Positions 6,151 through 45,755 of a stretch of 64,000 nucleotides of DNA are shown here, in pieces (position 1 is the first letter of the stretch; the number at the start of each line of letters is the position of its first letter). Below the pieces are notes generated by a model. It saw only the letters and a program-made list of their open reading frames with translations, was not told the DNA's origin and did not search any database. The stretch lies in contig MFRA01000005.1 in the NCBI GenBank assembly GCA_001783215.1, forward strand, positions 329,423-393,422. Direction: 5' to 3'. The position numbers were made by a program, and so were the translations under genes. Source of the DNA: Candidatus Magasanikbacteria bacterium RIFOXYD1_FULL_40_23. GTDB taxonomy: Bacteria > Patescibacteriota > Patescibacteriia > Magasanikbacterales > GWA2-37-8.

Positions 6151-6165
6151 AACCTGTATTTATAA

Positions 6166-7383: not shown

Positions 7384-7397
7384 ATGTATTATTGATT

Positions 7398-7476: not shown

Positions 7477-7478
7477 AG

Positions 7479-8150: not shown

Positions 8151-9561
8151 CTGAACCAGTCATTTCTAATGCCAAAAGACGGTTTAGTTCTACCGCATAT
8201 TCCATCGGCAGTTGTCGTACAATCGGACTGGCAAAACCATTTACAATAAGCGTGGCTGCCTGCTCTTCGGAAAGTCCACGGCTCATCAGATAAAATAATT
8301 CATCTTCACCAATACTGGCCACAGTAGCTTCGTGAGCAATGGCGACGTCTTTTTCTTTTATATCCATAGTAGGGTAGGTGTCCGAGCGAGAAGCAGGATC
8401 AAGCATTAGAGCATCGCAAACTACGCGAGTTTTTACATTCTTGGCGCCTTTGATTACTTTTACTAAACCGCGATAGGTGGTGCGACCACCGTTTTTGCTA
8501 ATGGATTTAGAAACAATAGTAGAGCTGGTATCTGGGGCTAAGTGAATTACCTTGCCGCCAGCATCTTGGTGTTGTCCTTTGGAGGCAAAAGCTAGAGATT
8601 GAATTTCTCCTTTGGCGCCACGTTCACGCAAAATAATACTAGGGTATTTCATTGTTGCTTTGGAGCCAAGGTTGCAGTCCAGCCAAAACATTTCGGCGTT
8701 CTCAAAGGCAGAAGCACGCTTGGTAACCAGATTATAAACATTGCCAGACCAGTTTTGGATAGTGGTATATTGGACACGTGCGCCTTTTTTTACCACTATT
8801 TCTACTACCGCCGAGTGGAGTGAATCACTGGAGTAGGTGGGTGCGGTACAGCCCTCTACATAGTGCACAGAGCTGCCTTCGTCGGCAATGATAAGTGTGC
8901 GTTCAAATTGACCCATGTTTTCTATGTTTATGCGGAAGTAGGCTTGTAATGGCAATTCTATATGTACGCCTTTTGGTACATAGATAAAACTTCCACCAGA
9001 CCAGACTGCCGAGTTGAGGGCAGAGAATTTATTGTCGTGTGCGGGTACTACAGTACCAAAATATTTTTTAAATAATCCCGGATGGTTTTTTAAGGCGTCA
9101 TCGGTGGATTCAAAAATTACGCCTTTTTTGGCTAGTTCTTTGGCTAGAGAATGATAAACCATTTCGGATTCAAATTGAGCGCCGCTGCCAGATAAAAATT
9201 TTTGTTCCGCTTGTGGTACGCCTAGTTTATCAAAAGTATTTTTAATTTCTGCGGGTACGTCTTCCCATTTGCGTTTGGTTTTATCTTGCGGGCGAACGTA
9301 GTAGTGAATATTATCAAAATCAATGCCGGACAAATCTGCACCCCAATTCGGCATATGCTTTTCCAAAAATACCTCGTAAGCCTTTAAGCGAAAATCAAGC
9401 ATCCATTCTGGTTCGGATTTTTGGCGGGACAGATCGCGGATCACTTCTTCGTTTAAACCTTTTTTGGAAGTAAAGACACTATTTGTTTTGGTACGAAAAT
9501 TAGAGGCGGATTTATTGCCAGTCTTGTTTATTATTTTTTTTGTTTTTGTAGGGATTGCCAT
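8143..9561 (-). CDS. sufB: Fe-S cluster assembly protein SufB
   Basis: 472 aa with SufB conserved blocks ([20 protein letters not shown]...); overlaps sufD by 8 nt. Confidence 0.85.
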
Positions 9562-9582
9562 AAGTTTAAAATTACCTCAATT

Positions 9583-9653
9583 GTCATTCTGAGAGAAACG
9601 AAGAATCCCTTAAGCTTAAAACGAGAGGGATCCTTCATTGTATTCAGGATGAC
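9583..9653. repeat. palindromic intergenic element family A, copy 5
   Basis: GTCATTCTGAGAGAAACGAAGAATCCCT ... AGGGATCCTTCATTGTATTCAGGATGAC between sufB and sufC. Confidence 0.75.
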
Positions 9654-9672
9654 AGTGAAGGTAAGTATTTGT

Positions 9673-12666: not shown

Positions 12667-12765
12667 ATATGAAATGAATGAGATAAAGCCTGTTAGATGT
12701 TTATATTATTATATAATAAAAACACTCCACCGTATAGGATAATTTTAGAGTAGGCGACAAAGACA

Positions 12766-14862: not shown

Positions 14863-14901
14863 GGCGGAGAGGGAGGGGTTCGGCTTCGACTAAAATTTTT
14901 T
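14863..14901 (-). repeat. tRNA-Ser 3'-end-like fragment (att-like direct repeat, copy 1) just after the GIY-YIG #1 stop
   Basis: minus-strand reading TAGTCGAAGCCGAACCCCTCCCTCTCCGCC, compared with the tRNA 3' end GGTTCGAATCCCTCCCTCTCCGCC. Confidence 0.6.
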
Positions 14902-15132
14902 ATCCAAATGTTTTTTTAAAAAAGCTCTGCCAGAACCAGATTTTAAATATTTTTCAAATTCAAATGCTGTGTATTTATCTTTGAATGCGAAGTAGGCTGT
15001 AAGTTCAACTGGTAAGCGCTTAGCTGTGGCTGGTACTTGGCCTTTTTGATGTCTAGCCATACGTTCTTTTAAATCGGATGTACAGCCAGAATAAAAACCG
15101 TCTTTGCATTTTAATATATAAACATAGTGCAT
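14890..15132 (-). CDS. small GIY-YIG nuclease-family protein (YhbQ/UPF0213-like), copy 1
   Basis: HYVYILKCKDGFYSGCTSDLKERMARHQ contains the GIY-YIG motifs and aligns with E. coli YhbQ; 80 aa. Confidence 0.7.
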   Translation of the reverse strand: MHYVYILKCKDGFYSGCTSDLKERMARHQKGQVPATAKRLPVELTAYFAFKDKYTAFEFEKYLKSGSGRAFLKKHLDKKF

Positions 15133-15241
15133 AAGCGGATTTTATCACGCCGAAGCTTCATCTTTGATAATTCGCATGAACCAAGTATTATGAAAAACTT
15201 AGAACTCGCCTCTGCCCTAAAGGGCTACGGCGAAGCGAAGG

Positions 15242-15326
15242 CGGAGAGGGAGGGATTCGAACCCTCGGTGCCTTGCGGCACACAGCTTTAGCAAAGCTGC
15301 ACAATCGACCACTCTGACACCTCTCC
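15242..15326 (-). tRNA. tRNA-Ser (anticodon GCU by hand fold), type II with long variable arm
   Basis: 7-bp acceptor GGAGAGG/CCTCTCC; anticodon stem CAGCT/AGCTG with loop TTGCTAA; variable arm GTGCC-GCAA-GGCAC; T-arm GAGGG-TTCGAAT-CCCTC; CC but no A encoded. Confidence 0.7.
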
Positions 15327-15831: not shown

Positions 15832-15856
15832 CTGGAGAGATATGATTCGGCTTCGA
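15832..15856 (-). repeat. degenerate tRNA 3'-end-like fragment (att-like, copy 3), matching the 3' end of the second tRNA
   Basis: minus-strand reading TCGAAGCCGAATCATATCTCTCCAG, compared with the tRNA at 16209-16295 3' end TCGAATCTCTATCTCTCCGCC. Confidence 0.5.
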
Positions 15857-16099
15857 CTAAAATTTTTTATCCAAATGTTTTTTTAAAAAAGCTCTACCAG
15901 AACCAGATTTTAAATATTTTTCAAATTCAAATGCAACGTATTTATCTTTGAATGCGAAATAGGCTGTAAGTTCTAGTGGTCGGCGATTGATTGTGGCGGG
16001 AACCTGGCCTTTCTGATGTCTTGATATGCGTTCTTTTAGGTCTGAGGTGCAACCAGAATAAAAACCGTCTTTGCATTTTAATATATAAACATAGTGCAT
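15857..16099 (-). CDS. small GIY-YIG nuclease-family protein (YhbQ-like), copy 2
   Basis: 80 aa, identical to copy 1 at both ends but diverged in the centre (ERISRHQKGQVPATINRRPLEL vs ERMARHQKGQVPATAKRLPVEL). Confidence 0.7.
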   Translation of the reverse strand: MHYVYILKCKDGFYSGCTSDLKERISRHQKGQVPATINRRPLELTAYFAFKDKYVAFEFEKYLKSGSGRAFLKKHLDKKF

Positions 16100-16208
16100 A
16101 AGCGGATTTTATCACGCCGAAGCTTCATCTTTGATAATTCGCATGAACCAAGTATTATGAAAAACTTAGAACTCGCCTCTGCCCTAAAGGGCTACGGCGA
16201 AGCGAAGG

Positions 16209-16295
16209 CGGAGAGATAGAGATTCGAACTCTAGAGGCCCTTTCGAGCCCGGCAGTTTAGTAAACTGCTGCCTTAAACCACTCGGCCATCTCTCC
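16209..16295 (-). tRNA. type II tRNA (Ser-like); anticodon reads ACU in my hand fold, which is atypical
   Basis: acceptor GGAGAGA/TCTCTCC; D-arm GCC-GAGTGGTTTAA-GGC; anticodon stem GCAGT/ACTGC with loop TTACTAA; long variable arm; T-arm TAGAG-TTCGAAT-CTCTA. Confidence 0.6.
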
Positions 16296-19414: not shown

Positions 19415-19920
19415 ACTCCTTCATCATCCCATTTTGTCAGCAAAAACCTCTATAGCCGCTTTCTTTAGAAGAAAGTGGCGGAAAGAATCGCTCGCGGTGG
19501 AAAGGATTCAGAAAATTTAGGACTCGTTTTCGTTAATTTTCAAAACTCACCAGCTTTTTGTTCGCAAAAAGCTGTCTCAAACATTAAAAATTTCCTTTAA
19601 GGAACTCTCAAACTCATCTCTAAATTTTAACTTCACCTTTCCAAAGCTCGCCTGGACAATCGACGGACAACCAATTGTCCCCGAGCATATGGATATCGAG
19701 CCGAGCAGTTCGAGATGAGTTTTTCGTGTCTGGCTCTGTGTTTGAACCCCCGAGGGGGTGAGTTCAGAGTCAGAGAAAAATGAGTCCGAACTGGCTGTGA
19801 GATATTCATCCGCGAGGCAGTTTTGGGGTATCACCCCGTTTTGTTGACAAAATGGGGTGATAAAGGTTAGCGAGCGATTCTTGCCCACTTCTACTAAAGA
19901 AGTGGGGAGAAGAAAGGTTT
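19415..19920. other. structured non-coding region / candidate ncRNA or decayed element with long-range inverted repeats
   Basis: a perfect 15-bp hairpin at 19830-19863 with a partial copy at 19417-19445; 19456-19500 is roughly reverse-complementary to 19867-19918; CCCCCGAGGGGG hairpin at 19748-19759. Confidence 0.3.
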
Positions 19921-22980: not shown

Positions 22981-23718
22981 ATGAATGAAAATCCTTCTGT
23001 TAAGCCAGAACTATCCGTGGTAATTTTGTGTTACCGCGCCGAAGATTTTGTGCCGGTTTTTGTAAAAGAAATGAAGGAAGCTTTGGATAAAGAAAATTTT
23101 AATTATGAATTAGTTTTGGTAGCAAACTACCATAAAGACGCCCCAAAACCAGACAAGACACCAGAAATTGTTCGCCAGTTGGCTCAAAACGACCCTCGTA
23201 TAGTCGTAGTTGCAAGAGAAAAAGAGGGGATGATGGGTTGGGATATGAGAACTGGGCTAGACGCCGCTACCGGAGAAAATATTGCCGTAATAGATGGTGA
23301 TGGTCAAATGCCTCCGCAAGATATAATTAAAGTTTATAATTTGCTTAAAGAAGGCAAGTTTGATGTTGCCAAAACATATCGTGACGCACGGTTTGATGGC
23401 TTGGTTAGAGTGGTTATTTCCAGAGTTTATAACTTCTTGTTCAAGGTTTTATTTCCTAAGGCCACTGTTCGTGATGTTAATTCTAAACCAAAAATTTTTA
23501 CTCGTGCTGCGTTTGATCAGCTCAAATTAACATCGGACGATTGGTTTATTGATGCAGAAATTATAATAAGAGCAACCCAGCTAGGGTTTACCATTGGTGA
23601 AGTAGAGACTCAATTTTTCCCAAATAAATACCGAAACTCCTTCGTTCGCTTTACTACTATCTTTGAATTTATCAAAAACTTTTTGCGTTTTCGTTGGGGC
23701 AATATTTTTAAGAAATAA
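22981..23718 (+). CDS. family-2 glycosyltransferase (polyprenyl-phosphate sugar synthase-like)
   Basis: LSVVILCYRAE ... DGDGQMPPQD GT-A fold DxD region. Confidence 0.6.
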   Translation: MNENPSVKPELSVVILCYRAEDFVPVFVKEMKEALDKENFNYELVLVANYHKDAPKPDKTPEIVRQLAQNDPRIVVVAREKEGMMGWDMRTGLDAATGENIAVIDGDGQMPPQDIIKVYNLLKEGKFDVAKTYRDARFDGLVRVVISRVYNFLFKVLFPKATVRDVNSKPKIFTRAAFDQLKLTSDDWFIDAEIIIRATQLGFTIGEVETQFFPNKYRNSFVRFTTIFEFIKNFLRFRWGNIFKK

Positions 23719-23784
23719 GTAATCTCAGTTTGACTAAGAAGTCGGGTGAAGTACCTTGACTTTTGATAATTTTTATTGTAAGGT

Positions 23785-24672
23785 GTGCAAATGAAAACCA
23801 ATCGGACAATTTCTGGTGATTTGCTCATACTCATCGCCATGGCGATGTTTGGATCACTGTCACTGTTTTTGCGAATTTTGCCGCACGTTTCACCTCTTGC
23901 GTTTCTAGGTGCGTTTCAGGTAGTTGGCATGGTAAGTTTTTTCATTCTTGCCCGTGCTCAGGGAATGCCACGCCTTACAAAACGTGACTACCTTCTTCTG
24001 GTTGCTCTTGCCGTTACGGCAACCTTGAACGATTTGTGCTACTTCTTTGCATTTACCATGACTTCAGTGGCCAATGCGGCCGTAGCGCACCAGTCGGTTT
24101 CAATATTCCTGCTTATCCTTGCTCCGCTTTTGTTGCGTGAGCGTACGCGCAAGGAAGAGTGGGTTGCACTAATCATTTCTCTTGTCGGTATCGTTGTACT
24201 TTATAGCGATCAATTCGGAATGAGCGGCGATAACAGGTCGAGTCTTATCGGCATTTCGCTCGCAGTGATTTCCGGGCTCTTCTATGCGCTCATCATAGTG
24301 CTCTATCGAATTATCCCCAATCCAGATCGGGGCATCACCATTAGCGTAGTAAACTTTTGGCGACATTTGATAAGCGCTGTGCTTCTTCTGCCATTTCTGC
24401 CACTAATGAATCTTGGTAATTTGCATGTGCAAGATGCATTGCCAATTGTCGGCTTCGGTCTAGCCTTCGCATTTGTCGCCTCTGGAATTCACAATTACGG
24501 GATTAGCAAGACGCGTTCGCTTCATGTCTCCATCCTAGGGAAAAGTGAACCAGTATTTGCAATTGCCTATGCGGCGATGATTTTGCATGAAATGCCAACC
24601 ATACGAGTCTTAATTGGCGGAGCTCTTATCGTAGGGTCAAGCCTGTGGCTCGCCTTGAAGAAAGAAAAATAG
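23785..24672 (+). CDS. EamA/DMT-family transporter
   Basis: 10-TM protein with duplicated EamA halves; raised GC compared with flanking DNA. Confidence 0.65.
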   Translation: MQMKTNRTISGDLLILIAMAMFGSLSLFLRILPHVSPLAFLGAFQVVGMVSFFILARAQGMPRLTKRDYLLLVALAVTATLNDLCYFFAFTMTSVANAAVAHQSVSIFLLILAPLLLRERTRKEEWVALIISLVGIVVLYSDQFGMSGDNRSSLIGISLAVISGLFYALIIVLYRIIPNPDRGITISVVNFWRHLISAVLLLPFLPLMNLGNLHVQDALPIVGFGLAFAFVASGIHNYGISKTRSLHVSILGKSEPVFAIAYAAMILHEMPTIRVLIGGALIVGSSLWLALKKEK

Positions 24673-24711
24673 CACGTATCAATTTATAAATTATCTTCGG
24701 TTCACCGGTCG

Positions 24712-24756
24712 GCACTTTGGAAAAATTCGTAACAACGAACCCCAAAGTGCTTTTTT
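24712..24756 (+). terminator. candidate intrinsic terminator after the EamA gene
   Basis: GCACTTTGG ... CCAAAGTGC stem followed by TTTTTT. Confidence 0.35.
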
Positions 24757-24911
24757 AATAAAATTAAGCGAAAAATCTGGATATATCTTATATTGACAAA
24801 TAGAGTTTTATATGGTATTTATTAATATTCTTTTTAGTATGGTTGGGTAAAAATTATAGTCTAATTGATTATAGTTTTAACCCAATCATACAACTTGGAT
24901 AGGAGGTATCT

Positions 24912-25364
24912 GTGGAGAAGCGCAATCTGGATGTAGAGGAAGCTGCTCGCAATGGTATTTCGACTATCTATGAGCAGATGCCGAACGGAGAGTTCCGTTA
25001 CAAGCTCATGCATAGTGGTTTCGGCAATGTTGGTATCGGTATTGCTGGTATGCATGGTGTTTGGCAGAATAGCCACTACCACAAGGGTGTGCAAGAGTTC
25101 ATGGCAGTTCAAGAGGGTTGGATAGCTTTTGTTGAAATGACACCCGGCGGTCTTGGCTGGATCATTTTGCGCAAGGGCGATACAGTTATCAGCAAGCCAA
25201 ACATTGCGCACAATGTGTATGTGTCGGCTGGCACGGTGTTCTACGGCGTAAAGTTCGGCGATATTGATCCGGAAAAAGGGGATTGGTATCCCAGTCCGGA
25301 ACTCGACGTTCTTGTCAAAGGCATGAGCGAGAGTGAGATTCTTCTGGTTGGTGGAAAGAAGTAG
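24912..25364 (+). CDS. cupin-domain protein
   Basis: HYHKGVQEFMAVQEG ... two-His cupin motifs; GTG start 6 nt after an AGGAGG Shine-Dalgarno. Confidence 0.45.
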   Translation: MEKRNLDVEEAARNGISTIYEQMPNGEFRYKLMHSGFGNVGIGIAGMHGVWQNSHYHKGVQEFMAVQEGWIAFVEMTPGGLGWIILRKGDTVISKPNIAHNVYVSAGTVFYGVKFGDIDPEKGDWYPSPELDVLVKGMSESEILLVGGKK

Positions 25365-25606
25365 GTTTGGTCGGATTGCATTCGTCCAACCTCAGATTAT
25401 CCGAAGTCGGTCGCGTTAGCTACCGGCTTTTATATTTATTTAATATATTTGTCATCTTTATGGATAAAACCATATTGTAGCGTTAGGTGGTTCCAGTAGT
25501 TTAGGCTATTTCATAGGTGTGCATTCCCTTGACTTTTGTGTTTATTTATTATAGATTAATCTGTCCTCTCGATTTACAGTGAGTCGGAGACAAAAAGGGG
25601 AAAGTC

Positions 25607-26299
25607 ATGAAAATCCAGGGATTCGCGTTTGATCTTGAAGGTACGGTAGTGAATGTGGAGCCTGCACATCACAACGCCCATTTCGCCACTGCGGCGGAGG
25701 TTGGCTTGGAGATCAACTCCGATAATGCGTTTCAGCTCTTGCCACACTTCATCGGTGGGCCGGATATCAAGGTGATGGAGGACATTTGGGCACTTAGCCA
25801 GAAGAAGGTCTCGCCCGGTGAGCTATTGAAGCGCAAGCAGTTCCACTACGAGCAGCTGCTCGCAACGATGGACGTGGCTCCGCGCAGAGGCTTTCGGCAC
25901 TTCTTCAACACGGTTGTCGATCTTGGTCTGTCTGTTTCGATCGGTTCGCTTACTCCGATGGTTCAGGCCAGGGTGCTTCTGGATCGCTCAGGTGTGGGCA
26001 AGGTGATTGGGGAGGCGAACATTGTCTTGGCCGAGCATGTGCAGAATCACAAGCCGGCGCCCGATGTGTTCTTGGAGACCGCACGACGGATGGGAATCAA
26101 TCCCACGCGCCAGCTGGTTTTCGAGGATTCACCTCGAGGAGTTCAAGCGGCAATCTCTGCTGGCTCCCGAGCTGTTGGCATGCCGGTCTACAACCGGCCC
26201 GAGGCCACCGTGCCGCTCATCCAGGCGGGCGTTTGCCGGCTGTTCATGGAATGGGACGAGATTAGCGTCTTGCCGTTCCTTCAGAACCTGGCGATGTAG
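25607..26299 (+). CDS. HAD-superfamily hydrolase (beta-phosphoglucomutase-like subfamily)
   Basis: motif I FDLEGTV and a C-terminal FEDSPRGVQAA motif III/IV region; high GC; Shine-Dalgarno AAGGGGAAAG. Confidence 0.6.
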   Translation: MKIQGFAFDLEGTVVNVEPAHHNAHFATAAEVGLEINSDNAFQLLPHFIGGPDIKVMEDIWALSQKKVSPGELLKRKQFHYEQLLATMDVAPRRGFRHFFNTVVDLGLSVSIGSLTPMVQARVLLDRSGVGKVIGEANIVLAEHVQNHKPAPDVFLETARRMGINPTRQLVFEDSPRGVQAAISAGSRAVGMPVYNRPEATVPLIQAGVCRLFMEWDEISVLPFLQNLAM

Positions 26300-26318
26300 A
26301 CACGGTATTAGTAACAAC

Positions 26319-26366
26319 GGCCATCCGACACACGTCGGATTCAAATGAGGGCTTGGCCACCCTCAT
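26319..26366. repeat. island-specific double-hairpin repeat, copy 1 (GGCCATCCGACacacGTCGGAT + GAGGGcttggccaCCCTC)
   Basis: two adjacent perfect hairpins; a near-identical copy at 27203-27250. Confidence 0.6.
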
Positions 26367-26456
26367 CTAATGGCATTCCGAAGTGGTTTCGGGGTGGCTT
26401 GGATCCACCACGGGAATAATCGTGATGGAAAAACAATGAGTACAGGAAGGTGAGCC

Positions 26457-27185
26457 GTGGACATTCTCCTCATTCTCGGGCGTGGTATTCAGATGCTTCA
26501 GGCAACGGATCCGGTCTCGGAAGTTCGTTCATGGCAGTTGACCGAAGATCTTGAGATGTGTACTGAGTTGGGTGCGCACCCGCAAGTGCGTGTGCCCGTC
26601 GACGACAACGACCCCAATTGTCTGGTGGGGGGTGCTCAGTTGAACTTGGAAGCAGGCAAGGTGCTGATTCGGCAACATTCGCCACAGGTTGTCGTTTGTG
26701 CATACGGAGACCGTTCCAAGTATTTGAAAGATATTGGCGGGCCTTCAGAGAGCCAGGTGATGACCGGAGTTCTCCAGAAGGATCTTGTCGATGCAGATTT
26801 GGCCAGAAAGCCAGAATTGGTTATCTGGGATCCGGCGCGTTCAAAGGGCGCCCATTCGAACACTCGGCAGGAAATCCTCAACGTCTTCGATCTGGCTATC
26901 GAGCTTGGGTTGGAGCGAATCGGATTCGTGACTGTCGGAGTCCATGTTCCGCGGACAGCGACTTTCATTGCGAAGCACATTTCCACTTTCTCCAAGTACC
27001 AACATCTCTCGCCGGTCATGTTCGAGAGCGAAGAGGTGTTGCTCGGATCTTCCGACCAGTGGAAGTCTCGGGTTGATACTCTCCGCAATTCTCAGGCTTT
27101 CTCTCGCAACCTGACCAATGAGTTCAGAGGCACCTTGGCAGCGCTTACTGGGAAGTATAATGCCGTGAAGGAGCAGACGAAGTAA
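26457..27185 (+). CDS. hypothetical protein (weakly DUF218/YdcF-like)
   Basis: GTG start 6 nt after an AGGAAGG Shine-Dalgarno; ILLILGRG ... VVCAYGDRS blocks; high GC. Confidence 0.3.
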   Translation: MDILLILGRGIQMLQATDPVSEVRSWQLTEDLEMCTELGAHPQVRVPVDDNDPNCLVGGAQLNLEAGKVLIRQHSPQVVVCAYGDRSKYLKDIGGPSESQVMTGVLQKDLVDADLARKPELVIWDPARSKGAHSNTRQEILNVFDLAIELGLERIGFVTVGVHVPRTATFIAKHISTFSKYQHLSPVMFESEEVLLGSSDQWKSRVDTLRNSQAFSRNLTNEFRGTLAALTGKYNAVKEQTK

Positions 27186-27202
27186 GCCCTTCGTAGTTAC
27201 GT

Positions 27203-27250
27203 GGCCATCCGACGCATATCGGATTTTAAATGAGGGTTTGGCCACCCTCA
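27203..27250. repeat. island-specific double-hairpin repeat, copy 2
   Basis: GGCCATCCGACgcatatcGGAT + GAGGGtttggccaCCCTC, matching copy 1. Confidence 0.6.
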
Positions 27251-27423
27251 ATTATCAGTAATCTGATTTTTATAAATGAGATTAGTGATAAGCAAAAATA
27301 CAAAAATATTTTTGTAAAAAGTTCTTTTCAATTTATTTTTTGCACAACACGTTTATTATTTTAAAATTTTTGAACTAATAAGTGTGTTGTGCAATGGGTG
27401 CACATGCGAACCAGGAGAACGAC

Positions 27424-28431
27424 ATGGATACTGATTTTTTCACGTGTGATTCGCAGTTTGTTATGGAATTGTCTGCCCCTGTTCGGGCGGCTGTATTCGC
27501 CGTTCTGGCAGCCGGTGATGTGGCCCAATGGGAAGATCGCGTGCCGAGAGTAAAGGCCGGCGAAGGACAACGTTCCGTTGTTACCGATGGAGATACAAGC
27601 GCAGAGGCGGTCATGGTGAGGAGACTGTTCTATTATGCTGGCTACAACGCACTTATTCTCTCCGAAGAGGACGCCAAGGGTGTCAATATTCTGTCAAAAG
27701 ATAACCCTGTGGGTATCTTGGAAGCAGAGGTTGCTTTCGTGATTGATCCCATCGACGGTACCGCACCCTATTCCGGCTATTTGGGCACATGGTGTGTGTC
27801 GGTTGGGGTGCTGAGTAAGGGCGAAATTATCGGCGGAGCTGTCTATGCTCCGGATCTCAACGGCGGGATGCTGGTCTTTTCGGAGAGGGGGTTGGGAACG
27901 ACTCTGATGAAGTACTGTTCGTTGCCCGCTCGTACACAGATTAGTAAGATTCCATTCCTTACGGCTTCAACCAAGGTGAAGAAGGCTAGGATTGGGCGTG
28001 GTGTAGATACGGATCTCTATCGTCTGATCGGTGAGCTGGTGAGCGCAGAAATCGCTCCCAGCGTGAACATGACCGCGGTGTGCAATTCTGGCATCCTGGG
28101 CCTAACGCAGGTCGCTTGTGGCCAGCTTACGGCTATCATTCAGATGCCGCAGAAGTCATGGGATTGGGCAGGTGCATTTCGCGCCGTGCTAGAAACCGGA
28201 CGGACTGTGTCGTTCTTCCGTCTACTGCCAGATCCAAGCGCTCAGAAATCGGATATGCTGGTGGAAGTGGACGGTTATGACTTCGATGCGTTTAGGTATG
28301 CCAAGCAGCATCGGCTTGGTTTCGTGGCTGGTGAGCCGGACATGGTTCGGCGCATCATGGAGCAGATGCCTCGTACGGGCTACAACCGCACCAACCCGGA
28401 GACGGTTGCCGGAGTTTGGAAGGACAAGTAG
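27424..28431 (+). CDS. inositol-monophosphatase/CysQ-family phosphatase
   Basis: metal-binding motif VAFVIDPIDGT; the start was set to ATG 27424, 6 nt after an AGGAGA Shine-Dalgarno; high GC. Confidence 0.6.
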   Translation: MDTDFFTCDSQFVMELSAPVRAAVFAVLAAGDVAQWEDRVPRVKAGEGQRSVVTDGDTSAEAVMVRRLFYYAGYNALILSEEDAKGVNILSKDNPVGILEAEVAFVIDPIDGTAPYSGYLGTWCVSVGVLSKGEIIGGAVYAPDLNGGMLVFSERGLGTTLMKYCSLPARTQISKIPFLTASTKVKKARIGRGVDTDLYRLIGELVSAEIAPSVNMTAVCNSGILGLTQVACGQLTAIIQMPQKSWDWAGAFRAVLETGRTVSFFRLLPDPSAQKSDMLVEVDGYDFDAFRYAKQHRLGFVAGEPDMVRRIMEQMPRTGYNRTNPETVAGVWKDK

Positions 28432-28565
28432 ATAAGGAGTAAGCAATGACGCTCTGTCATCAAGTCCAAAGCGGACAAGATGGCAGGGCGTGTTTTTATA
28501 TTGCATTCTTAGGCAAAAATTGGTAAAGTATAGGGCATATAATCGTAGATAAATCTACTAAACCT

Positions 28566-30086
28566 ATGTCGAAAAAGTATCTGTACATTGGCTATATTTT
28601 AAGCTGGCTAGTATTTTTTGGTTTTTCTTTGTATCGCTACGCCCAAATTTTGGCGGGAGAGTGTAGGTTTTTCACAAATGGATGGTTGGCGTGTGCGCCT
28701 CAATCAGAATTAAGCAGTCTAGGAAAGTTCGGTATTATTTTTTTAATCGTGGCGGTGTTTGGTTATTTTTTATATACCACTTGGTTGCTTTGGCAAAGTA
28801 ATGATCAAACGATTGGTATTTCCAATAAATTAAAGTGGATGTTATTTGGTCTTGGGGTTTTGGCAGTGTTTGTGGTGCCACTCGGTACAACCGATATGCC
28901 TTTTGATTTTTCGGCTGGAAAAGCAATTAGTAATAATTTAAATCCATACGTTGATAAATGGGTATTAGAAGTAGATTTTTCGGATAGAGGTAATTTTGCG
29001 CCAACTGCTGGATTTCCTTATGGCCCAATTATGGCCAGTGCTTTTTATTGGGTTTATAGTATAAGTTTCAACAATGTGTTGGTCTTTATGTTATTTTGGA
29101 AGATTTTGATGCTACTATTTTTTGTTGGTTGTGGTTTTCTAACAATGAAATTGGGCGGTTTATTATCGAATGGTAAAAATAATACAACTTGGTATGTGCT
29201 TTGGTTTGCACAGCCTATATTTTTGTTTGAATGGATGGTGAATGGGCATTTTGACGGCGTGTGGTTATTTTTTGTACTTCTTGCTTTTTATGCGGCCCAC
29301 ACCAAACGTTGGTGGCTTATGGCGCCAGCTTTTGCAATAGGTGTGTGGACTAAATTTATACCTATTTTTATCGCCCCATTTTTTGCCCTATGGTGGTGGC
29401 AAGATATAAGCAAAGAAACATGGAAAAAAAGTGTGTCAAAGATGGCGGTTGGTTTGGCGCTGGCTATTTTAATTACATTTTTAAGCTGGAAACCATTTTG
29501 GACTGGCCCAGCTGTATTTGCTTCGCTAATCAGTCAATCCAAATTTGCTTCAATGAGTATCTTTGCAACTGCATATTATTCTTTAAAGCCTTTGTTTGTT
29601 TGGTTGTTGGCAGATCAAGCCCACTGGTATCTTACTCGTTTGTTGCAAGGAAGTTTGTTGCTAATAGTTATCTATTTATTATATCCAATAATCAAAAAAT
29701 GTTTGGCTGTGTTGTTTAGAAAAGTAAAATTAGAAAGCGGGGATTATATACAGACCATGTTGATTTTTTTGCTAGTTTATCTTATAGTATGGCAAAAATC
29801 ATTTTGGCCGTGGTATGGCGTATGGTTTATACCTTTAGCTTTAATTTCTTACAAAGCCTATCAGCATCCATATGTGCTAAAAATTGCTGCCTGGTTTAGT
29901 CTGGCATCTCCTATTTACCACATAATTGCTTGGGCAACATTAAAAAATGACGCTGTATCAAAAGATGAATTATGGTTTTATTATTTAATAGTTTGTAGCG
30001 CTTTGCTGTATCCTCTGTATTTAATTTTCCTTTGGCGAAAAAAAGATTTTGCTAATACAAATGAACTACCGGTTAATAATACATAA
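28566..30086 (+). CDS. polytopic membrane protein, putative GT-C-fold glycosyltransferase (DUF2029-like)
   Basis: 506 aa with about 13 TM helices and a Trp-rich first loop; it opens the glycan gene cluster. Confidence 0.4.
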   Translation: MSKKYLYIGYILSWLVFFGFSLYRYAQILAGECRFFTNGWLACAPQSELSSLGKFGIIFLIVAVFGYFLYTTWLLWQSNDQTIGISNKLKWMLFGLGVLAVFVVPLGTTDMPFDFSAGKAISNNLNPYVDKWVLEVDFSDRGNFAPTAGFPYGPIMASAFYWVYSISFNNVLVFMLFWKILMLLFFVGCGFLTMKLGGLLSNGKNNTTWYVLWFAQPIFLFEWMVNGHFDGVWLFFVLLAFYAAHTKRWWLMAPAFAIGVWTKFIPIFIAPFFALWWWQDISKETWKKSVSKMAVGLALAILITFLSWKPFWTGPAVFASLISQSKFASMSIFATAYYSLKPLFVWLLADQAHWYLTRLLQGSLLLIVIYLLYPIIKKCLAVLFRKVKLESGDYIQTMLIFLLVYLIVWQKSFWPWYGVWFIPLALISYKAYQHPYVLKIAAWFSLASPIYHIIAWATLKNDAVSKDELWFYYLIVCSALLYPLYLIFLWRKKDFANTNELPVNNT

Positions 30087-39084: not shown

Positions 39085-40005
39085 ATGTCCAAGATTCTTA
39101 TCACAGGTATTGCTGGTTTTATCGGAAGTAACTTAGCAGTTCGTTTATTAGAAGAAGGTCATCAAGTTGTTGGTATAGATGATCTTTCTCACGGTCTTCA
39201 AGAACAAGTTCCGGAAGGTGCTACTTTTATTAAGCAAGATATTAGATCAAGAGATATATATTCCTTATTTGAAGGTGTAGATTATGTTTTTCATCTAGCC
39301 GCTCTTAGCTCTATCCCAGATTGCCAGCGCGATCCAGTAAGTGCTTGTGACGTAAATACAACTGGTACAGTAAATGTATTTGAAGCTAGTGCGAGAGCTG
39401 GTGTGAAAAAAGTTATTTTTGCAGAAACCTCCGCAGTATACGAAGGTATTCAACAATGGCCAACTCCAGAAGCAAATGTCGATCCACACAGTGTTTATGC
39501 TGTAGGCAAAATGGCTGCTCGTCTTTTTGCAAAACCTTATAAAGAATTCCGCAATTTAGATAGTGTTGGTGTACGCTACTTTAATGTTTATGGTCCAAGA
39601 CAAGATTATAGACGCAGTATTCCACCTCTAATGTCTGCATTTATTCTTGCTTTGTTGCGCGGCGAAAAACCAGTTATCTATGGTGATGGAGAAAAGAGAC
39701 GTGATTTTATTTATGTAGACGATGTAAATGACGCTCACCTGTTGCTTATGAAAGACGACAGAGCTAATAATAATATTTATAATATTGGCTCCGGTACAAA
39801 CAACTCTATCAATGAAATTTATAAAATGACCAAGGAGTTGTTGGGAACAGATATTGAGCCAGTTCACAAAGATAATTTAGAGGCCGAAGCTCAAATAACA
39901 TTGGCCGATTGCAGTGCCTTAAAGAATTTGGGATGGCAGCCAAAAATGAGTCTTGAAGAAGGGATTAAAATTCAGCTTGAATATATCAAGAAGCATGTTT
40001 TATAG
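39085..40005 (+). CDS. NAD-dependent nucleotide-sugar epimerase/dehydratase (UDP-hexose 4-epimerase family)
   Basis: ILITGIAGFIGSNL Rossmann motif; YAVGK catalytic YxxxK. Confidence 0.65.
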   Translation: MSKILITGIAGFIGSNLAVRLLEEGHQVVGIDDLSHGLQEQVPEGATFIKQDIRSRDIYSLFEGVDYVFHLAALSSIPDCQRDPVSACDVNTTGTVNVFEASARAGVKKVIFAETSAVYEGIQQWPTPEANVDPHSVYAVGKMAARLFAKPYKEFRNLDSVGVRYFNVYGPRQDYRRSIPPLMSAFILALLRGEKPVIYGDGEKRRDFIYVDDVNDAHLLLMKDDRANNNIYNIGSGTNNSINEIYKMTKELLGTDIEPVHKDNLEAEAQITLADCSALKNLGWQPKMSLEEGIKIQLEYIKKHVL

Positions 40006-40035
40006 AGTTTTAATACTATCTAAAATCAGTTTATA

Positions 40036-40106
40036 GGAGCTAAAGCCCATATATTCTCATTCGTTCGGAAATAATTAAGCAAGTTTAATTATCTCACTCA
40101 CTTATT
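40036..40106 (+). promoter_or_regulatory. conserved hairpin+leader cassette (family B), copy A, ending at the ATG of the GHMP-kinase gene
   Basis: GGAGCTAAAGCCC hairpin + ATATATTCTCATTCGTTC ... CTCACTCACTTATTTTGATTATG. Confidence 0.6.
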
Positions 40107-41099
40107 TTGATTATGATTTTGACAAGAACCCCATTTAGAATTCCTCTTGGTGGAGGAGGTACTGATTTACCATCTTTTTATCAGCAGCATGGTGGTTTTT
40201 TGTTTAGCGCCGCCATAGATAAATACATGTATATTGCCATCAATCGTCCGATTGTGGATCCGCTTGTATACATCAGATATTCACGCACCGAAATTGTAGA
40301 ACATGTATCTCAAATCCAAAATCAATTGGCTCGGGCTGCTCTAGAACAGTATGGCATACAAGATCGCATAGAAATTTCTTCTATGTCTGATGTGCCAGCT
40401 GGTACAGGAATGGGTTCATCCGGTTCTTATTTAGTTGGAATACTAAAAGGTTTGCAAGCTTTAACTCGTAGGGGTTCCAGTGTGCAGGATCTTGCGGAAG
40501 AGGCTTGTCATATTGAGATTGATTTATTGAAGAAACCGGTAGGTAAACAGGATCAGTATCTAGCAGCTTTTGGGGGCTTTACTATAATGGATATAGATAA
40601 AGATGGAAAAGTAAAAGTTTCTAATGCTAATGTAAGCTATGAAACTATAGAAGAGCTTCAGAGTAAGTTAATTTTATTTTATACCGGTATTTCACGAGAT
40701 GCGATGAGTATTTTGGGAGAACAAAGTGCAGCAGCCAAAAAAGAAGAAAGCGATGTTTCCAAATCATTATTGCAAATCAAAGACATTGGCATGGAAATTA
40801 AAAATTCAATTGAACAAGGTAATTTGGATAATTTTGGTAGATTGATGGATGAGCATTGGAGAGTAAAGAAAATGATGTCTAATAAAATGTCTGATCCAAA
40901 GATTGATCGTCTTTATGCGTTAGCCAAAGAAAAAGGCGCTTTGGGTGGAAAAATTATGGGTGCAGGAGGCGGAGGTTTCTTTGTGTTCTATTGCCCTAAT
41001 GATAAAAAAGGAGTGCGCGAAGCAATGAGAGCAGAAGGTTTGAAAGAAATGCCTTTTAGGTTTGAAAACGAAGGCGCAAAAACAATGGTTGATTTTTGA
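40107..41099 (+). CDS. hddA: GHMP-family sugar kinase (D-glycero-D-manno-heptose 7-phosphate kinase-like)
   Basis: GHMP motif PAGTGMGSSGSYLVG; it lies in a cluster with a SIS isomerase, GmhB and a nucleotidyltransferase; TGA stop. Confidence 0.65.
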   Translation: MIMILTRTPFRIPLGGGGTDLPSFYQQHGGFLFSAAIDKYMYIAINRPIVDPLVYIRYSRTEIVEHVSQIQNQLARAALEQYGIQDRIEISSMSDVPAGTGMGSSGSYLVGILKGLQALTRRGSSVQDLAEEACHIEIDLLKKPVGKQDQYLAAFGGFTIMDIDKDGKVKVSNANVSYETIEELQSKLILFYTGISRDAMSILGEQSAAAKKEESDVSKSLLQIKDIGMEIKNSIEQGNLDNFGRLMDEHWRVKKMMSNKMSDPKIDRLYALAKEKGALGGKIMGAGGGGFFVFYCPNDKKGVREAMRAEGLKEMPFRFENEGAKTMVDF

Positions 41100-41158
41100 T
41101 TTAACGAAACCATGTCGGGTAACGACCATTGAAACCTGACGAGAACTCTTCATATTAT

Positions 41159-42472
41159 ATGGGTAAGGATTCAGCAAAAGTAGCCGTAATCGGCTTATGG
41201 CATTTAGGGTGTACTGCTTCTGCCGGTTTGGCCGAAGCGGGTTATGTTGTTACTGGAGTTGATTTTGATAAAAAAATAGTTAATGATTTAGCAGAGCAAA
41301 GTGCGCCACCTCTATTTGAGCCTGGTTTGGTAGATTTGATTAAAAAAAATAAAGATGCTGGTAGGTTAAATTTTACCGCTGATTTTAAAAGCGCCTTACA
41401 GGGAAAGAAGTTCGTAGTTATTGGTTTTGATACCCCAGTAAATGATAATGATTATCCTGATCCAAAGGTGATATATAAAGCGTGCGAAGAAATTGCCAAG
41501 TTTGCCGACGATAATTGTTTTGTTATAATTATGAGTCAGGTGCCAGTTGGCAGTTGCCGCGAGATGAAGAAATTAATTTTAAAACGTAGACCAGGGATGA
41601 AATGTAATATAGTTTATAACCCGGAAAATTTGCAGTTGGGCCAGTCTATAAAAAGATTTTTAGAACCGGACAGAGTAATAATCGGCTTGGAGAATGAATC
41701 CGCGCGTCAGTCAGTAGAAGGTTTTTTTCAAGCAATTGGTGGGCAGAAATTATACATGGATTTAGAAAGCGCAGAGATGGTAAAACATGCTACCAACACT
41801 TTTCTGGCCATGTCTATAAGTTTTATAAATGAAATTGCTGATTTTTGTGAAATTACTGGTGCGGATATACGCAGGGTGGTAGAGGGTCTAAAGGCAGATG
41901 CTAGAATAGGAGCTAGGGCATTTTTAAGTCCGGGAATTGGTTATGCCGGCGGTACTTTAGGTCGTGATATTGCGGTGTTAAGAGATTTGGCAAAATCCAA
42001 AAAATTAAAAACGCACATTATCGGCGCGGTTAGAGAAGTCAACCGCAGTCGTCAAAAAAAGATTATAGAAAAAATAAAAGGCATTATCGGTTCGTTGCGG
42101 AATAAAAAAGTTGCTATTTTGGGACTAACCTATAAACCGGGCACAAGCACTCTGCGTCGTTCCATGTCACTCGAGATAGCGCAAAAATTATTGGCAGTAG
42201 GCGTAAAAATTAAAGCCTATGATCCAAAGATTATTACTCCGATCAAAGGTTTGTCAAAAATGAAAGTGTGCTTGGACCCGTATCAAGCCATTCTTGGCGC
42301 CGATGTAATTTTGTTGGCCACCGATTGGCCGGAATTTAAAGAATTAGATTTTGTCAAAATTAAAAAAATAGCCAATCGGGCTATAGTAGTAGACTGTAAG
42401 AATTTTTTATCGCCCGAAGTTATTAAAAATCATGGCTTTTCGTATTATGGCATAGGCTTTAATTTGGAGTAA
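41159..42472 (+). CDS. UDP-glucose/GDP-mannose dehydrogenase-family nucleotide-sugar dehydrogenase
   Basis: N-terminal VAVIGLWHLGCTASAGLAEAGYVV Rossmann motif; the central helix and C-terminal UDP-binding domain match the family. Confidence 0.7.
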   Translation: MGKDSAKVAVIGLWHLGCTASAGLAEAGYVVTGVDFDKKIVNDLAEQSAPPLFEPGLVDLIKKNKDAGRLNFTADFKSALQGKKFVVIGFDTPVNDNDYPDPKVIYKACEEIAKFADDNCFVIIMSQVPVGSCREMKKLILKRRPGMKCNIVYNPENLQLGQSIKRFLEPDRVIIGLENESARQSVEGFFQAIGGQKLYMDLESAEMVKHATNTFLAMSISFINEIADFCEITGADIRRVVEGLKADARIGARAFLSPGIGYAGGTLGRDIAVLRDLAKSKKLKTHIIGAVREVNRSRQKKIIEKIKGIIGSLRNKKVAILGLTYKPGTSTLRRSMSLEIAQKLLAVGVKIKAYDPKIITPIKGLSKMKVCLDPYQAILGADVILLATDWPEFKELDFVKIKKIANRAIVVDCKNFLSPEVIKNHGFSYYGIGFNLE

Positions 42473-42481
42473 ATTATTTAT

Positions 42482-43339
42482 ATGATTTTAAAAAATAAAG
42501 TAGCTATAGTTACGGGTGGCAGTCGAGGGATTGGCAAAGCCGTAGTAATATCTCTTGCTAAATCTGGCTGCAAAGTTGTGGTTGCTTCTATAATTTCTGA
42601 AGATTTAAAAAATTTGCAAAAAGAGCTTTTGCGCGAAAGTTTTCGTATAGAAATAAAAAAAGTGGATGTTTCTGATTACAGCCAAGTACAAAGAGTAGTA
42701 AAGGCTGTGGTGAAGAAATTCGGTACTGTAGATATTTTGGTAAACGCTGCCGGAATATATGGACCAATTGGATTGTTTAAAGATAACGATATTCAAAAGT
42801 GGGCGCAAACATTGCAAGTAAATTTACTTGGCACTGTTAATTGTGTGCATGCTGTTTTGCCTATAATGATGAAGAAAAAATCTGGTAAAATTATTGATTT
42901 TTCTGGTGGGGGCGCCGTAAATAGTTTCCCTAATTTTTCTGGCTATGCCACCTCCAAAGCTGCAGTAGTTCGTTTTACCGAAACAATTGCTGAAGAGTTA
43001 AAGCCATACAATGTGCAGATTAATGCGATTGCGCCGGGAGCGGTAAACACCAAATTGCTAGATGAATCTTTGGAAGCAGGTAAAAAAGCTGTAGGCGACA
43101 AATTTTATACAAAGATTGTGCAGCAGAAAAAAGAAGGCGGAGACTCGCCTCAGTTGGCGGTGGATTTAATTTTATTCCTTATCTCCGATAAGTCCTTTAA
43201 TCTAACCGGCAAATTGATAAGTGCAAAGTGGGATAATTGGAAAAATTGGAAAAAAGAAGATATTGAGAAATTAAAAAATAATTCGGAATATAATTTGAGA
43301 CGAATTGATAATAAAGATTTCCGAGAAGTAAAAAAGTAA
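42482..43339 (+). CDS. short-chain dehydrogenase/reductase (SDR)
   Basis: VAIVTGGSRGIGKAV; NAAG; YATSKAA catalytic YxxxK. Confidence 0.7.
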   Translation: MILKNKVAIVTGGSRGIGKAVVISLAKSGCKVVVASIISEDLKNLQKELLRESFRIEIKKVDVSDYSQVQRVVKAVVKKFGTVDILVNAAGIYGPIGLFKDNDIQKWAQTLQVNLLGTVNCVHAVLPIMMKKKSGKIIDFSGGGAVNSFPNFSGYATSKAAVVRFTETIAEELKPYNVQINAIAPGAVNTKLLDESLEAGKKAVGDKFYTKIVQQKKEGGDSPQLAVDLILFLISDKSFNLTGKLISAKWDNWKNWKKEDIEKLKNNSEYNLRRIDNKDFREVKK

Positions 43340-43354
43340 TTATCATACTTTATA

Positions 43355-43465
43355 GGGGCTAAAGCCCATATATTCTCATTCACTCAGAAATATCCAGATT
43401 CGGTATTTATAATTCGCAAGCAATTATAAATACCTCACCGGCTATTTCACTCACTCATTTCGAAT
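43355..43465 (+). promoter_or_regulatory. conserved hairpin+leader cassette (family B), copy B
   Basis: GGGGCTAAAGCCC + ATATATTCTCATTCACTC ... TTTCACTCACTCATTTCGAATATG. Confidence 0.65.
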
Positions 43466-44467: not shown

Positions 44468-44474
44468 TTATATA

Positions 44475-44546
44475 GGCTGCGGCATATATTCTCGTTCGCT
44501 CTGATAAAATTAAAACATTTAATTCTTTCACTCATTCATTTCATAT
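44475..44546 (+). promoter_or_regulatory. conserved hairpin+leader cassette (family B), copy C
   Basis: GGCTGCGGC + ATATATTCTCGTTCGCTC ... TTTCACTCATTCATTTCATATATG. Confidence 0.6.
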
Positions 44547-45751: not shown

Positions 45752-45755
45752 TATT

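Follow-up and report, generated by a model that had tools for sequence, protein, structure and literature searches.

A GC-rich, Shine-Dalgarno-led gene island in a glycan locus of a Magasanikbacteria genome, and its relatives across the Candidate Phyla Radiation

Genes of atypical GC content in O-antigen and capsule loci are classically read as horizontally acquired islands. The GDP-D-glycero-alpha-D-manno-heptose pathway, which serves S-layer and capsule glycans, comprises GmhA, HddA, GmhB, and HddC. In the Bacteroidia, which are blind to the Shine-Dalgarno (SD) motif, the anti-SD is sequestered by bS21/bS18/bS6, and rpsU and prfB are SD-led exceptions (PMC7797042, PMC9976891, PMC13000453, PMC10798248). 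Here, a window of 64,000 nt from Candidatus Magasanikbacteria bacterium RIFOXYD1_FULL_40_23, a tiny organism from groundwater, was analyzed, and all coordinates given below are positions in this window unless a contig is named. Five genes on the plus strand (23791–28431), encoding an EamA/DMT permease, a small cupin-like protein, a HAD hydrolase, a DUF218-like protein, and an IMPase-like protein, form an island that is a compositional alien within the host window. A bare island of horizontal gene transfer would be ordinary; the notable part is that the same SD-led, GC-elevated genes recur across bacteria of the Candidate Phyla Radiation (CPR, Patescibacteria). The explanation that we favor, and to which we give an even chance of being right in full, is that the island belongs, as one local member, to an old family of self-contained expression cassettes that accompany a heptose-type pathway in CPR bacteria.

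The GC content of the five genes is 0.47–0.57, and their GC content at third codon positions (GC3) is 0.48–0.69. The GC3 of the native genes is 0.25–0.44, and the lone exception (0.50) is a doubtful open reading frame (ORF) of 103 aa (19577–19888). In bins of 1 kb, the background GC is 0.34–0.43, and values of up to 0.45–0.55 were found at 25–29 kb. With windows of 200 nt, the GC content was found to climb at about 23.8 kb, to reach a maximum of 0.61, and to come back down at about 28.45 kb. The profiles and the values of the single genes agree with the original prediction, which had described a higher-GC stretch of about 4.7 kb with five genes. AT-rich spacers (GC 0.29–0.38) separate the island genes, the structured spacer 26300–26456 (0.51) being the exception. 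The sliding-window GC and tetranucleotide analysis that had been proposed as a check showed that the island is deviant even after GC correction. Its Karlin dinucleotide distance delta* is 126 (z = 7.8), whereas native windows of its length have values of 37 ± 11.5 and do not exceed 66, and its tetranucleotide distance has a z of 19.8 versus native windows. Codon usage differs as well: the codon shares in island versus native genes are 0.79 versus 0.24 for AAG, 0.78 versus 0.32 for CAG, and 0.66 versus 0.14 for TTC, and the share of GAT in the island genes is still 0.72.

Sharp GC steps at both ends could also result from an assembly chimera with the DNA of a higher-GC organism. More than 15 contigs from differing samples and assemblers (SPAdes, MEGAHIT, JGI, NCBI metagenome-assembled genome (MAG)), including one of 393 kb and another one from an NCBI MAG, contain the island and both junctions at 99.85–100% identity. 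Because the same junctions are found in more than 15 assemblies, a chimera is excluded for all practical purposes, and its probability is negligible. Misassembly, against which the original prediction had cautioned, is therefore not the origin of the island. In addition, relatives have homologues of the promoter hairpin and of the terminator that border the island. The contigs represent one population; they attest the assembly and say nothing about the age of the island. The DUF218-like protein is identical to that of Candidatus Magasanikbacteria bacterium RIFOXYD2_FULL_39, a member of the CPR/Patescibacteria.

The strength of SD motifs was quantified as the energy of the duplex with ACCUCCUUU in kcal/mol, and motifs at or below −7 in the window were regarded as strong. 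An SD was defined as a motif that is complementary to the 3′-end of the 16S rRNA, lies 4–9 nt before the start, and is enriched over background. The energies are −3.9 for EamA, −11.5 for cupin, −8.0 for HAD, −7.8 for DUF218, and −7.4 for IMPase. Thus, four of the five island genes reach −7, compared to none of the 58 native genes, of which just one reaches −6; the native median is +0.6 (Mann-Whitney p = 2e-4). At random island positions, −7 is reached in 4.3% of the cases. The four SD motifs quoted earlier were each found at their starts, and the statement that most native genes have no SD was confirmed by the absence of a strong SD from all 58. The native genes of the window also have a leader motif without G, CACTCAyTCATTTC, which ends 4–5 nt before the ATG and was found six times versus 0.96 expected matches (43448–43461, 44529–44542, 62514–62527 on the minus strand, 55883–55896, 40095–40108, and 12671–12684 on the minus strand). 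The motif is also present ahead of the orthologous SIS, GmhB, and TAL genes in L041–L044 and L092 (L004–L092 denote the metagenome and MAG contigs that were compared with the window). It may be an SD-independent initiation or leader signal of the lineage.

A metagenome scan with the alignment of the DUF218-like protein yielded 43 further loci. For 34 non-redundant loci with a locus GC of 0.38–0.61, the module genes were compared with genes of the heptose pathway as controls, with one start-finding rule for both. A strong SD precedes 33 of 44 module genes, in contrast to 3 of 128 controls at the same loci (Fisher p = 1.7e-22). The motifs GGAGG or GAGGTG were found ahead of the DUF218-like gene in 24 of 34 cases versus 1 of 128 controls, and GGAGGTG usually lies 4 nt from the start. 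The DUF218-like genes start with GTG (13), TTG (11), or ATG (10), so that 24 of 34 have a non-ATG start, whereas about 85% of the controls start with ATG. When the window and 19 related loci were taken together, an SD at or below −8 was found for 5 of 349 ORFs. The SD is also retained when module genes are separated, as in L066, where the HAD and DUF218 genes lie 5.6 kb apart and each has its own. Because the SD is kept in hosts with 38–61% GC that otherwise have none, it is intrinsic to the genes, and a recent donor does not account for it.

The elevated GC3 is likewise a recurring trait. In 15 of 19 loci, the DUF218 gene has a higher GC3 than its matched controls (Wilcoxon p = 0.005), and the regression of this GC3 on the host GC3 has a slope of 0.47, with the largest excess in low-GC hosts. 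This excess amounts to +0.30 in the window and +0.20 in L041, and it is about zero or negative in the hosts with the highest GC. A constant GC3 irrespective of the host had also been considered and was discarded, because antisense ORF calls in high-GC contigs had contributed to this impression and the corrected slope is 0.47. A probable antisense miscall was also noticed in L041, where the precomputed minus-strand gene 1556–2332 overlies a GC-rich gene for a small EamA protein that starts at about 1577 on the plus strand. Gene arrangements similar to that of the island were found in several contigs. In L041–L044 and L047, genes for a small EamA protein, HAD, DUF218, and a different IMPase paralogue directly adjoin the heptose-type cluster that is also present in the window. 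The module genes of L041–L044 are SD-led and GC-rich (GC3 0.52–0.79, compared to 0.34–0.47 for the hosts), whereas the host genes have low GC, no SD, and the same CU-rich leader as the native genes of the window. L076 (GC 0.49) has the order of the window, EamA-HAD-DUF218-IMPase, at 37–49% identity.

The original prediction had explained the island by recent horizontal acquisition from a higher-GC, SD-using donor. According to this explanation, the whole block was imported from an organism with genome-wide SD use, and SD motifs and GC content are unameliorated donor traits. The strong compositional deviation is in agreement with it, and the GC1, GC2, and GC3 values of the island lie on the Muto-Osawa equilibrium lines for genomes of 47–57% GC, without the GC3 deficit of amelioration, which would suit a very fresh import. 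Relatives lack the island at this site, and the cupin has its best homologue (44%) in L089, an ICE-like contig of 65% GC with a TraG-type coupling protein, an integrase, and a DNA methylase, which does use SD motifs. In that contig, the HAD – 432-aa – cupin block (5846–8438) is itself a low-GC island (GC3 0.58 versus 0.73–0.94). The comparison revealed no donor-like contig, and general use of the SD was absent from all of the roughly 30 CPR contigs with homologues, including those of high GC (Kaiserbacteria L021, L048, and L080). In view of the family-wide presence of the motif, an SD-using donor is not supported. The best-hit taxonomy that had been suggested did reveal homologues for the island genes; they are few, and all informative ones, wherever a source is named, are from CPR bacteria. 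A donor search by dinucleotide signature yielded no convincing higher-GC CPR contig (97–147), the value of 64 for L066 being within the noise of short segments. The module copies resemble one another in this signature (delta* 28–89), as expected of homologous DNA. A viral origin was also considered and rejected, since IMG/VR contains no relative of the DUF218-like protein.

The divergence from the nearest relatives also speaks against a recent import. Between the window and L041–L047, the identities are 66–88% for native pathway proteins, 71–80% for DUF218, and 82% and 56% for HAD. The synonymous divergence (dS) is 0.9–1.1 for DUF218, 1.0–1.8 for HAD, and from 1.1 to saturated for native genes. 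As HAD and DUF218 have diverged about as much as native genes, with a dS of about 1, the GC-rich, SD-led core should be older than the split of these low-GC lineages. The word recent can thus not be upheld for this core: HAD and DUF218 have their nearest homologues in SD-less relatives of equally low GC, with which control elements are shared. Moreover, the internal spacers are AT-rich like the host, and the nearest relatives differ among the five genes, which argues against arrival in one block. No direct repeats, which had been suggested as a check, were found at the borders of the island by a repeat search. There is no tRNA junction, the nearest tRNAs being 7.5 kb away. No integrase or transposase gene lies next to the island, the neighbors of which are glycan enzymes, and the window genes that were examined (these leave out several in 1–19 kb and 53–64 kb) encode no integrase domain. 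The claimed horizontal acquisition thus holds only in part: that the site is empty in relatives and that the IMPase looks like a xenologue still indicates rearrangement and exchange within the CPR, whereas its recency and the SD-using donor are not supported. Altogether, a recent import of the whole block is clearly unlikely.

Instead, the island genes are embedded in control elements that recur in relatives. The units consist of an insulating hairpin with a −35 box of the sigma-70 type, an extended −10, a leader hairpin, an SD (often with GTG or TTG), GC-rich ORFs, spacer RNA, and a terminator. The first cassette start (23737–23780, plus strand) has the terminator-like hairpin AGAAGTCGGG..CCTTGACTTTT, which doubles as the end of the preceding GT2 gene; its 3′ arm contains the −35 box TTGACT, and the −10-like TATTGT follows. 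The motif CCTTGACTTTT occurs twice in the window, both times inside the island. Its second copy provides the −35 box of the second cassette start (25527–25606, plus strand), which continues with the −10 TAGATT, a 5′ leader hairpin (about 25562–25592), and the SD AAGGGGAAAG; the promoter-like site is 25529–25557. The common design is a hairpin AAAAAGTCrGGG..CCTTGACTTTTTTG that contains the −35 box, followed by the extended −10, the leader hairpin, and the SD. Copies were found in the window at 25527 (HAD) and at 23754 (EamA, without the leader hairpin), as well as in L022, L024 (two), L041–L044, and L046. The cargo behind them varies and includes small EamA operons, an AAA_33 protein, a protein of 191–198 aa, IMPase, and DUF218 alone.

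A structured intercistronic RNA was found at 26319–26437 (plus strand), consisting of hairpin 0, P1 (GAGGG..CCCTC), and a long P2; the covariance model R1 matches 26345–26437 with 52.8 bits. A second, AT-enriched copy lies at 27203–27300 (plus strand; R1 match 27230–27300, 58.6 bits, GC 0.31), in which P2 is retained through compensatory changes. That this copy became AT-enriched while its pairing was kept indicates that the AT pressure of the host acts on the island. The spacer RNA precedes HAD, DUF218, and IMPase genes, and R1 also matches L024, L041 (three times), L042/L043 (two times), L044, L045, and L047. The alignments of the spacer RNA and of the promoter/leader contain 9–10 related sequences each. 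The spacer RNA is 94.7% paired with compensatory changes in 6 of 21 pairs, and the leader hairpin is 88.9% paired with compensatory changes in 5 of 9 pairs, clearly in register when compared with slid controls; this covariation is suggestive of conserved structures in both elements. Judged from the sequences, these private control elements are additionally shared within a Magasanikbacteria-like clade. The hairpin repeats 26319–26365 and 27203–27250 (87–92% identical) are the 5′ part of the spacer RNA, and they are indeed specific for the island, as had been claimed, with two copies and none elsewhere in the 64 kb. A dispersed REP/MITE family was rejected as an interpretation, since both copies lie in the island and the exact core of 22 nt was found in contigs of the same species only; diverged homologues of the repeats in related cassettes were recovered with the covariance model. 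Rfam contains no relevant match at E ≤ 1 for 23700–28600, and at the gathering threshold the whole window matches two tRNAs only.

Two terminators belong to the island. A putative intrinsic terminator, as read from the sequence, follows EamA (24712–24756, plus strand; GCACTTTGG..CCAAAGTGC and T6). The conserved cassette terminator AAGGAG..GCTCTGTCATCAAGTCCAA..GGACAAGATGGCAGGGCG with a T run (28434–28498, plus strand) is present in a single copy in the window, and in L022, L041, L042, L044, and L046 a homologue of it stands behind the last gene of the cassette. Directly 5′ of the SD of the IMPase gene lies an AT-rich palindrome (27340–27394) with arms of 27 nt that are 85% complementary; it may function as operator, attenuator, or 5′ hairpin. 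In L042, the conserved GUUCAUUUC was predicted from the single sequence to pair with GGAGGUGAAC of the SD, and a sequestering helix is thus possible.

The island occupies a glycan locus, as was originally proposed and as the Pfam domains of the flanking genes agree: Wzy_C+TPR, methyltransferase, and GT2 on the left and an MptA_B-family GT-C, GDP-mannose dehydratase, epimerase, flippase, and glycosyltransferases on the right. It is inserted between the GT2 and MptA_B glycosyltransferase genes, 11.6 kb from the partner pathway (39085–47287, plus strand), which has native GC and no SD. According to Pfam domains, the partner cluster encodes epimerase, GHMP kinase, UDPG/GDP-Man dehydrogenase, SDR, GFO/IDH/MocA oxidoreductase, SIS (GmhA-like), HAD (GmhB-like), NTP-transferase, and transaldolase. 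In L027, L028, L030, L031, L033, L034, L036, L039, and L040, the methyltransferase gene adjoins MptA_B and the island is absent. Because these nine relatives have neither the island nor the native-GC GT2 gene between methyltransferase and MptA_B, the site is a variable slot. In the closest relatives L022/L023, whose MptA_B is 68–69% identical, an aminotransferase gene is present at the site of the island. Although the GT2 gene (22981–23718) is native in its GC content and not SD-led, it is missing from the site in relatives just as the island is; in the contigs L004/L005 of the same population it was called shorter (193 aa) or not at all, near a region of small indels. Several of the CPR-like MAG contigs among L022–L040 are labelled 'uncultured Gammaproteobacteria' or 'Udaeobacter', which are probably mislabels.

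The cargo of the cassettes has been exchanged in several instances. Upstream of aminotransferase and MptA_B, and thus in a place equivalent to that of the island, L022 (138–713) and L024 (7895–8491) have a gene for a protein of 191–198 aa in the same cassette frame of promoter hairpin, leader hairpin, SD, and conserved terminator. An assignment of this cargo to Nudix was dismissed, because there was a likeness by eye and no Pfam match. L092 (1075–2079), which shares its MAG with L023, the closest relative, encodes an IMPase of the subfamily of the window (57% identity) that lies between the genes for NTP-transferase (85%) and transaldolase (86% identical), where the window has a spacer of 75 nt (46491–46564). 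In a neighbor-joining tree, the IMPases of the window and of L092 are long-branch sisters, a pattern that suggests that either lineage has undergone a xenologous displacement. The spacer 3′ of the IMPase gene in L092 contains tandem native leader motifs and a GGGGCTAAAGCCC hairpin.

The raised GC of the module genes persists over about one synonymous substitution per site, and hence it must have been maintained or repeatedly renewed within the CPR. The two possibilities lead to different explanations. We favor the cassette family described above, which would accompany a heptose-type nucleotide-sugar pathway for surface glycans in CPR bacteria. The present position of the island would have been reached by rearrangement or recombination of cassettes within CPR glycan loci, and along the way at least one xenologous replacement (IMPase) would have occurred and the full-length EamA and cupin genes would have been added. 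The 5′ hairpin, the intercistronic hairpins, and the GC-rich coding regions would together result in a stable, structured mRNA. Such an mRNA could not make use of the native AU-rich, SD-independent initiation, and thus its translation would depend on SD pairing. The position of the island genes on the equilibrium lines, with no sign of ongoing amelioration, is also in agreement with this explanation.

Several observations weigh against this explanation. No mechanism has been shown that would hold a GC3 of 0.5–0.7 in a genome with 0.33, and the codon shift is a general increase of G- and C-ending codons without the classic pattern of translational selection. The spacer RNA and the promoter/leader were seen solely within the close clade represented in their alignments. 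The IMPase of L092 has native GC (GC3 0.32) and no SD, so that these traits are not obligatory for an IMPase. No 16S fragment was found in the roughly 1 Mb of sequence that was searched for the anti-SD of the host, and the anti-SD motif has been reported to be missing in about half of the Parcubacteria (PMC9297842). Further points are shared with an alternative explanation, a neutral renewal by frequent exchange of cassettes among CPR bacteria via the conserved flanks. Here, a GC-richer CPR reservoir would re-seed the cassettes, the GC content would reflect history and not selection, and the need for the SD in the reservoir lineage would be the sole reason for its persistence. The dS of the module genes is below that of most native controls, which could mean a younger common ancestor and not synonymous constraint. 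The orthologous cargo of L022 and L024 has a GC3 of 0.84 and 0.57, respectively, which looks like differing recent histories. The identities of DUF218 and of neighboring genes are not correlated over all 141 pairs (Spearman −0.11); strict co-inheritance beyond the close clade, for which r = 0.77 versus the window alone would have spoken, is therefore not put forward. This deep incongruence implies that horizontal movement or paralogy of DUF218 has been frequent, and it leaves room for renewal from a GC-richer reservoir. The IMPase xenologue, the differing cargo within the same flanks, and the buffered GC3 of DUF218 would fit as well. However, the higher-GC CPR contigs L021, L048, and L080 have no SD on other genes, and an SD-using reservoir is thus not visible. 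In addition, the AT-rich flanks are shared almost unchanged, which is hard to reconcile with a high-GC source, and the separated module genes of L066 each retain their SD. We regard neutral renewal as a serious alternative, if a less probable one.

The conserved flanks could also be recombination hot spots at which GC-biased gene conversion lifts the GC content by biased repair, in which case the SD would be a separate matter. The flanks could serve as homology arms, the GC excess is limited to the cassettes, and the structured spacers also have a GC of about 0.5. To our knowledge, the effects reported for bacteria are far smaller than +0.3 GC3, and thus the size of the effect seems too large. 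Also, the promoter spacers of the island are AT-rich, and in the hosts with the highest GC the gene is no richer than its neighbors. GC-biased conversion could be a contributor and seems too weak as the full cause, a role in which it is very unlikely.

A more far-reaching reading is that, in CPR lineages whose genes otherwise initiate without SD pairing, a small regulon for glycan precursors consists of long-kept 'SD-only' messages and that the GC-rich coding was selected for the stability or structure of the mRNA and not inherited from a donor. Such messages would be characterized by the extended GGAGGTG, weak GTG or TTG starts, the 5′ hairpin, and the structured intercistronic RNAs. Their translation might need a special state of the ribosome with an exposed anti-SD, comparable to bS21-less ribosomes and rpsU in Bacteroidia, or a spacer RNA that senses a ligand. 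We put this proposal forward tentatively and consider it rather unlikely as a whole.

The gene products are in agreement with a role in the metabolism of sugar phosphates. The EamA/DMT permease (23791–24672, plus strand, 293 aa) matches Pfam EamA with E = 2e-32, its gene has a GC/GC3 of 0.47/0.48 and the weak SD AAGGTG, and the homologue in L076 is 49% identical in the same gene order. The small cupin-like protein (24912–25364, plus strand, 150 aa, GC/GC3 0.49/0.54) is encoded by a gene with a GTG start and the SD TAGGAGGT. Its match to Cupin_2 (PF07883) has 20 bits and is below the gathering cut-off of 27.2, so that the label 'cupin' is tentative; there was no PDB match by sequence. The family is tiny, with 7 matches, and the cupin homologue in the Patescibacteria contig L090 (58% GC) is the sole SD-led gene of that contig. 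The HAD-IA protein (25607–26299, plus strand, 230 aa, ATG start, GC/GC3 0.57/0.69) is beta-phosphoglucomutase-like (Pfam HAD_2/Hydrolase; HAD_2 52 bits versus a cut-off of 23.8), with beta-PGM and sugar phosphatases in the PDB at 1e-12 and nearest homologues of 82% identity in L042/L043. Its motif I (25628–25645) is FDLEGT and thus D-x-E, and FD(L/M)EGT was found in 8 of 8 family members seen (including L019, L042–L044, L066, and L076). The general acid/base Asp+2 is thereby replaced by Glu, a departure from the motif I DxDx(T/V) that is unusual for HAD phosphatases and mutases.

The divergent DUF218-family protein (26457–27185, plus strand, 242 aa, GC/GC3 0.53/0.61) is encoded by a gene with a GTG start and the SD AGGAAGGTGA. 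The window protein matches DUF218 (PF02698) with 22.4 bits, below the cut-off of 27.6, and DUF218 was matched at E < 0.01 by 43 of 46 family members (best 6e-9). Homologues with 68–81% identity are from short groundwater contigs. The AlphaFold2 model has a pLDDT of 93.4, and no PDB match was obtained by sequence or with Foldseek (best E 0.06, TM 0.35). The IMPase-family (Inositol_P) protein (27424–28431, plus strand, 335 aa, SD AGGAGA, GC/GC3 0.54/0.58) matches PF00459 with 74.2 bits versus a cut-off of 27, contains the motifs SEE, DPIDGT, and WDWAG, and matches IMPases in the PDB at 3e-7; the closest homologues are 53–58% identical and all from CPR bacteria. Of the gene labels assigned earlier, EamA, HAD, and Inositol_P are above their Pfam cut-offs, and Cupin_2 and DUF218 are below theirs. 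The predicted functions, sugar-phosphate handling plus a DMT permease, are consistent with the cargo proposed earlier. The HAD and IMPase phosphatases, DUF218, the cupin, and the DMT permease might form a side branch of a GDP-heptose or GDP-sugar pathway for dephosphorylation or for salvage and export.

Genes for HIT-domain proteins of 289–301 aa were observed in L017 (11097–11981), L019 (11370–12275), L091 (2044–2934), and L044 (3433–4302). In L017, L019, and L091, they follow an IMPase homologue, have an SD, and are rich in GC; the gene in L044 lies ahead of the cassette and has no SD and near-native GC. A pair of a HIT-type GDP-sugar phosphorylase and an IMPase-type sugar-1-phosphate phosphatase is formed by the plant proteins VTC2 and VTC4, which we mention as a lead only, and the HIT protein and the IMPase may be such a pair. 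In L091, the IMPase gene is flanked by repeats of the GGAATGACA type. They are akin to intergenic, REP/MITE-like inverted repeats TGTCATyCTGAG..~48 nt..yTCAGGATGACA of the window (912–983, 1444–1515, 6082–6151, 7397–7477, and 9582–9654), for which 11 half-sites were found versus 3.5 expected. The window also contains a tandem duplication (14879–15262 and 15846–16229, 92% identical) of a GIY-YIG ORF and a tRNA-Ser; the tRNA copies have the anticodons GCT (15240–15326) and ACT (16207–16295), the latter with an unusual A34.

Atypical GC is routinely taken as a sign of recent transfer, whereas these genes stay atypical across many genomes and over a dS of about 1. If the traits are maintained, the cassettes are a case in which the detection of transfer by composition misleads, and they offer a natural marker set for translation initiation in the CPR, where the anti-SD might be absent, hidden, or conditional. 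The analysis also contributes three candidates for regulatory elements of RNA or DNA, supported by covariation, and connects DUF218, a D-x-E subfamily of HAD, and an IMPase subfamily with a putative heptose-type surface-glycan pathway in uncultured organisms.

The comparison with described systems reveals likenesses and differences in each case. Integron cassettes also combine varying cargo with recurring structured boundary elements in equivalent places. They are, as a rule, promoterless, and an integron was rejected for the island because no RYYYAAC/GTTRRRY (R″/R′) cores were seen by eye, no intI was found in the genes examined, and promoters and terminators are supplied by the cassettes themselves. 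The DUF218 family, which includes YdcF, SanA, and ElyC, is envelope-related; the Pfam matches of the family members and the envelope or glycan context are alike, but the protein of the window is under the Pfam cut-off and has no PDB neighbor despite its confident model (pLDDT 93). With the islands of O-antigen and capsule loci, the island shares the variable glycan locus, the deviation in GC and codon usage, the absence in relatives, and a cargo for sugar nucleotides. It differs from them in having no mobility genes, tRNA junction, or repeats, in a deviation that lasts in relatives at a dS of about 1, in the private promoter, leader, spacer, and terminator, and in a translation signal that is not used by other genes of the host. 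The partner cluster resembles the GDP-heptose pathway in its SIS protein, GHMP kinase, GmhB-like HAD, and NTP-transferase, plus a transaldolase, all assigned from Pfam domains only, whereas the beta-PGM-like HAD and the DUF218, IMPase-like, EamA, and cupin proteins are outside the described pathway. Like rpsU and prfB of the Bacteroidia, the cassette genes are a few genes with a strong, conserved SD in genomes nearly devoid of it, which implies a special translational control. In contrast to those genes for a ribosomal protein and a release factor, they encode CPR glycan and sugar-phosphate enzymes, for which an autoregulatory loop is not evident.

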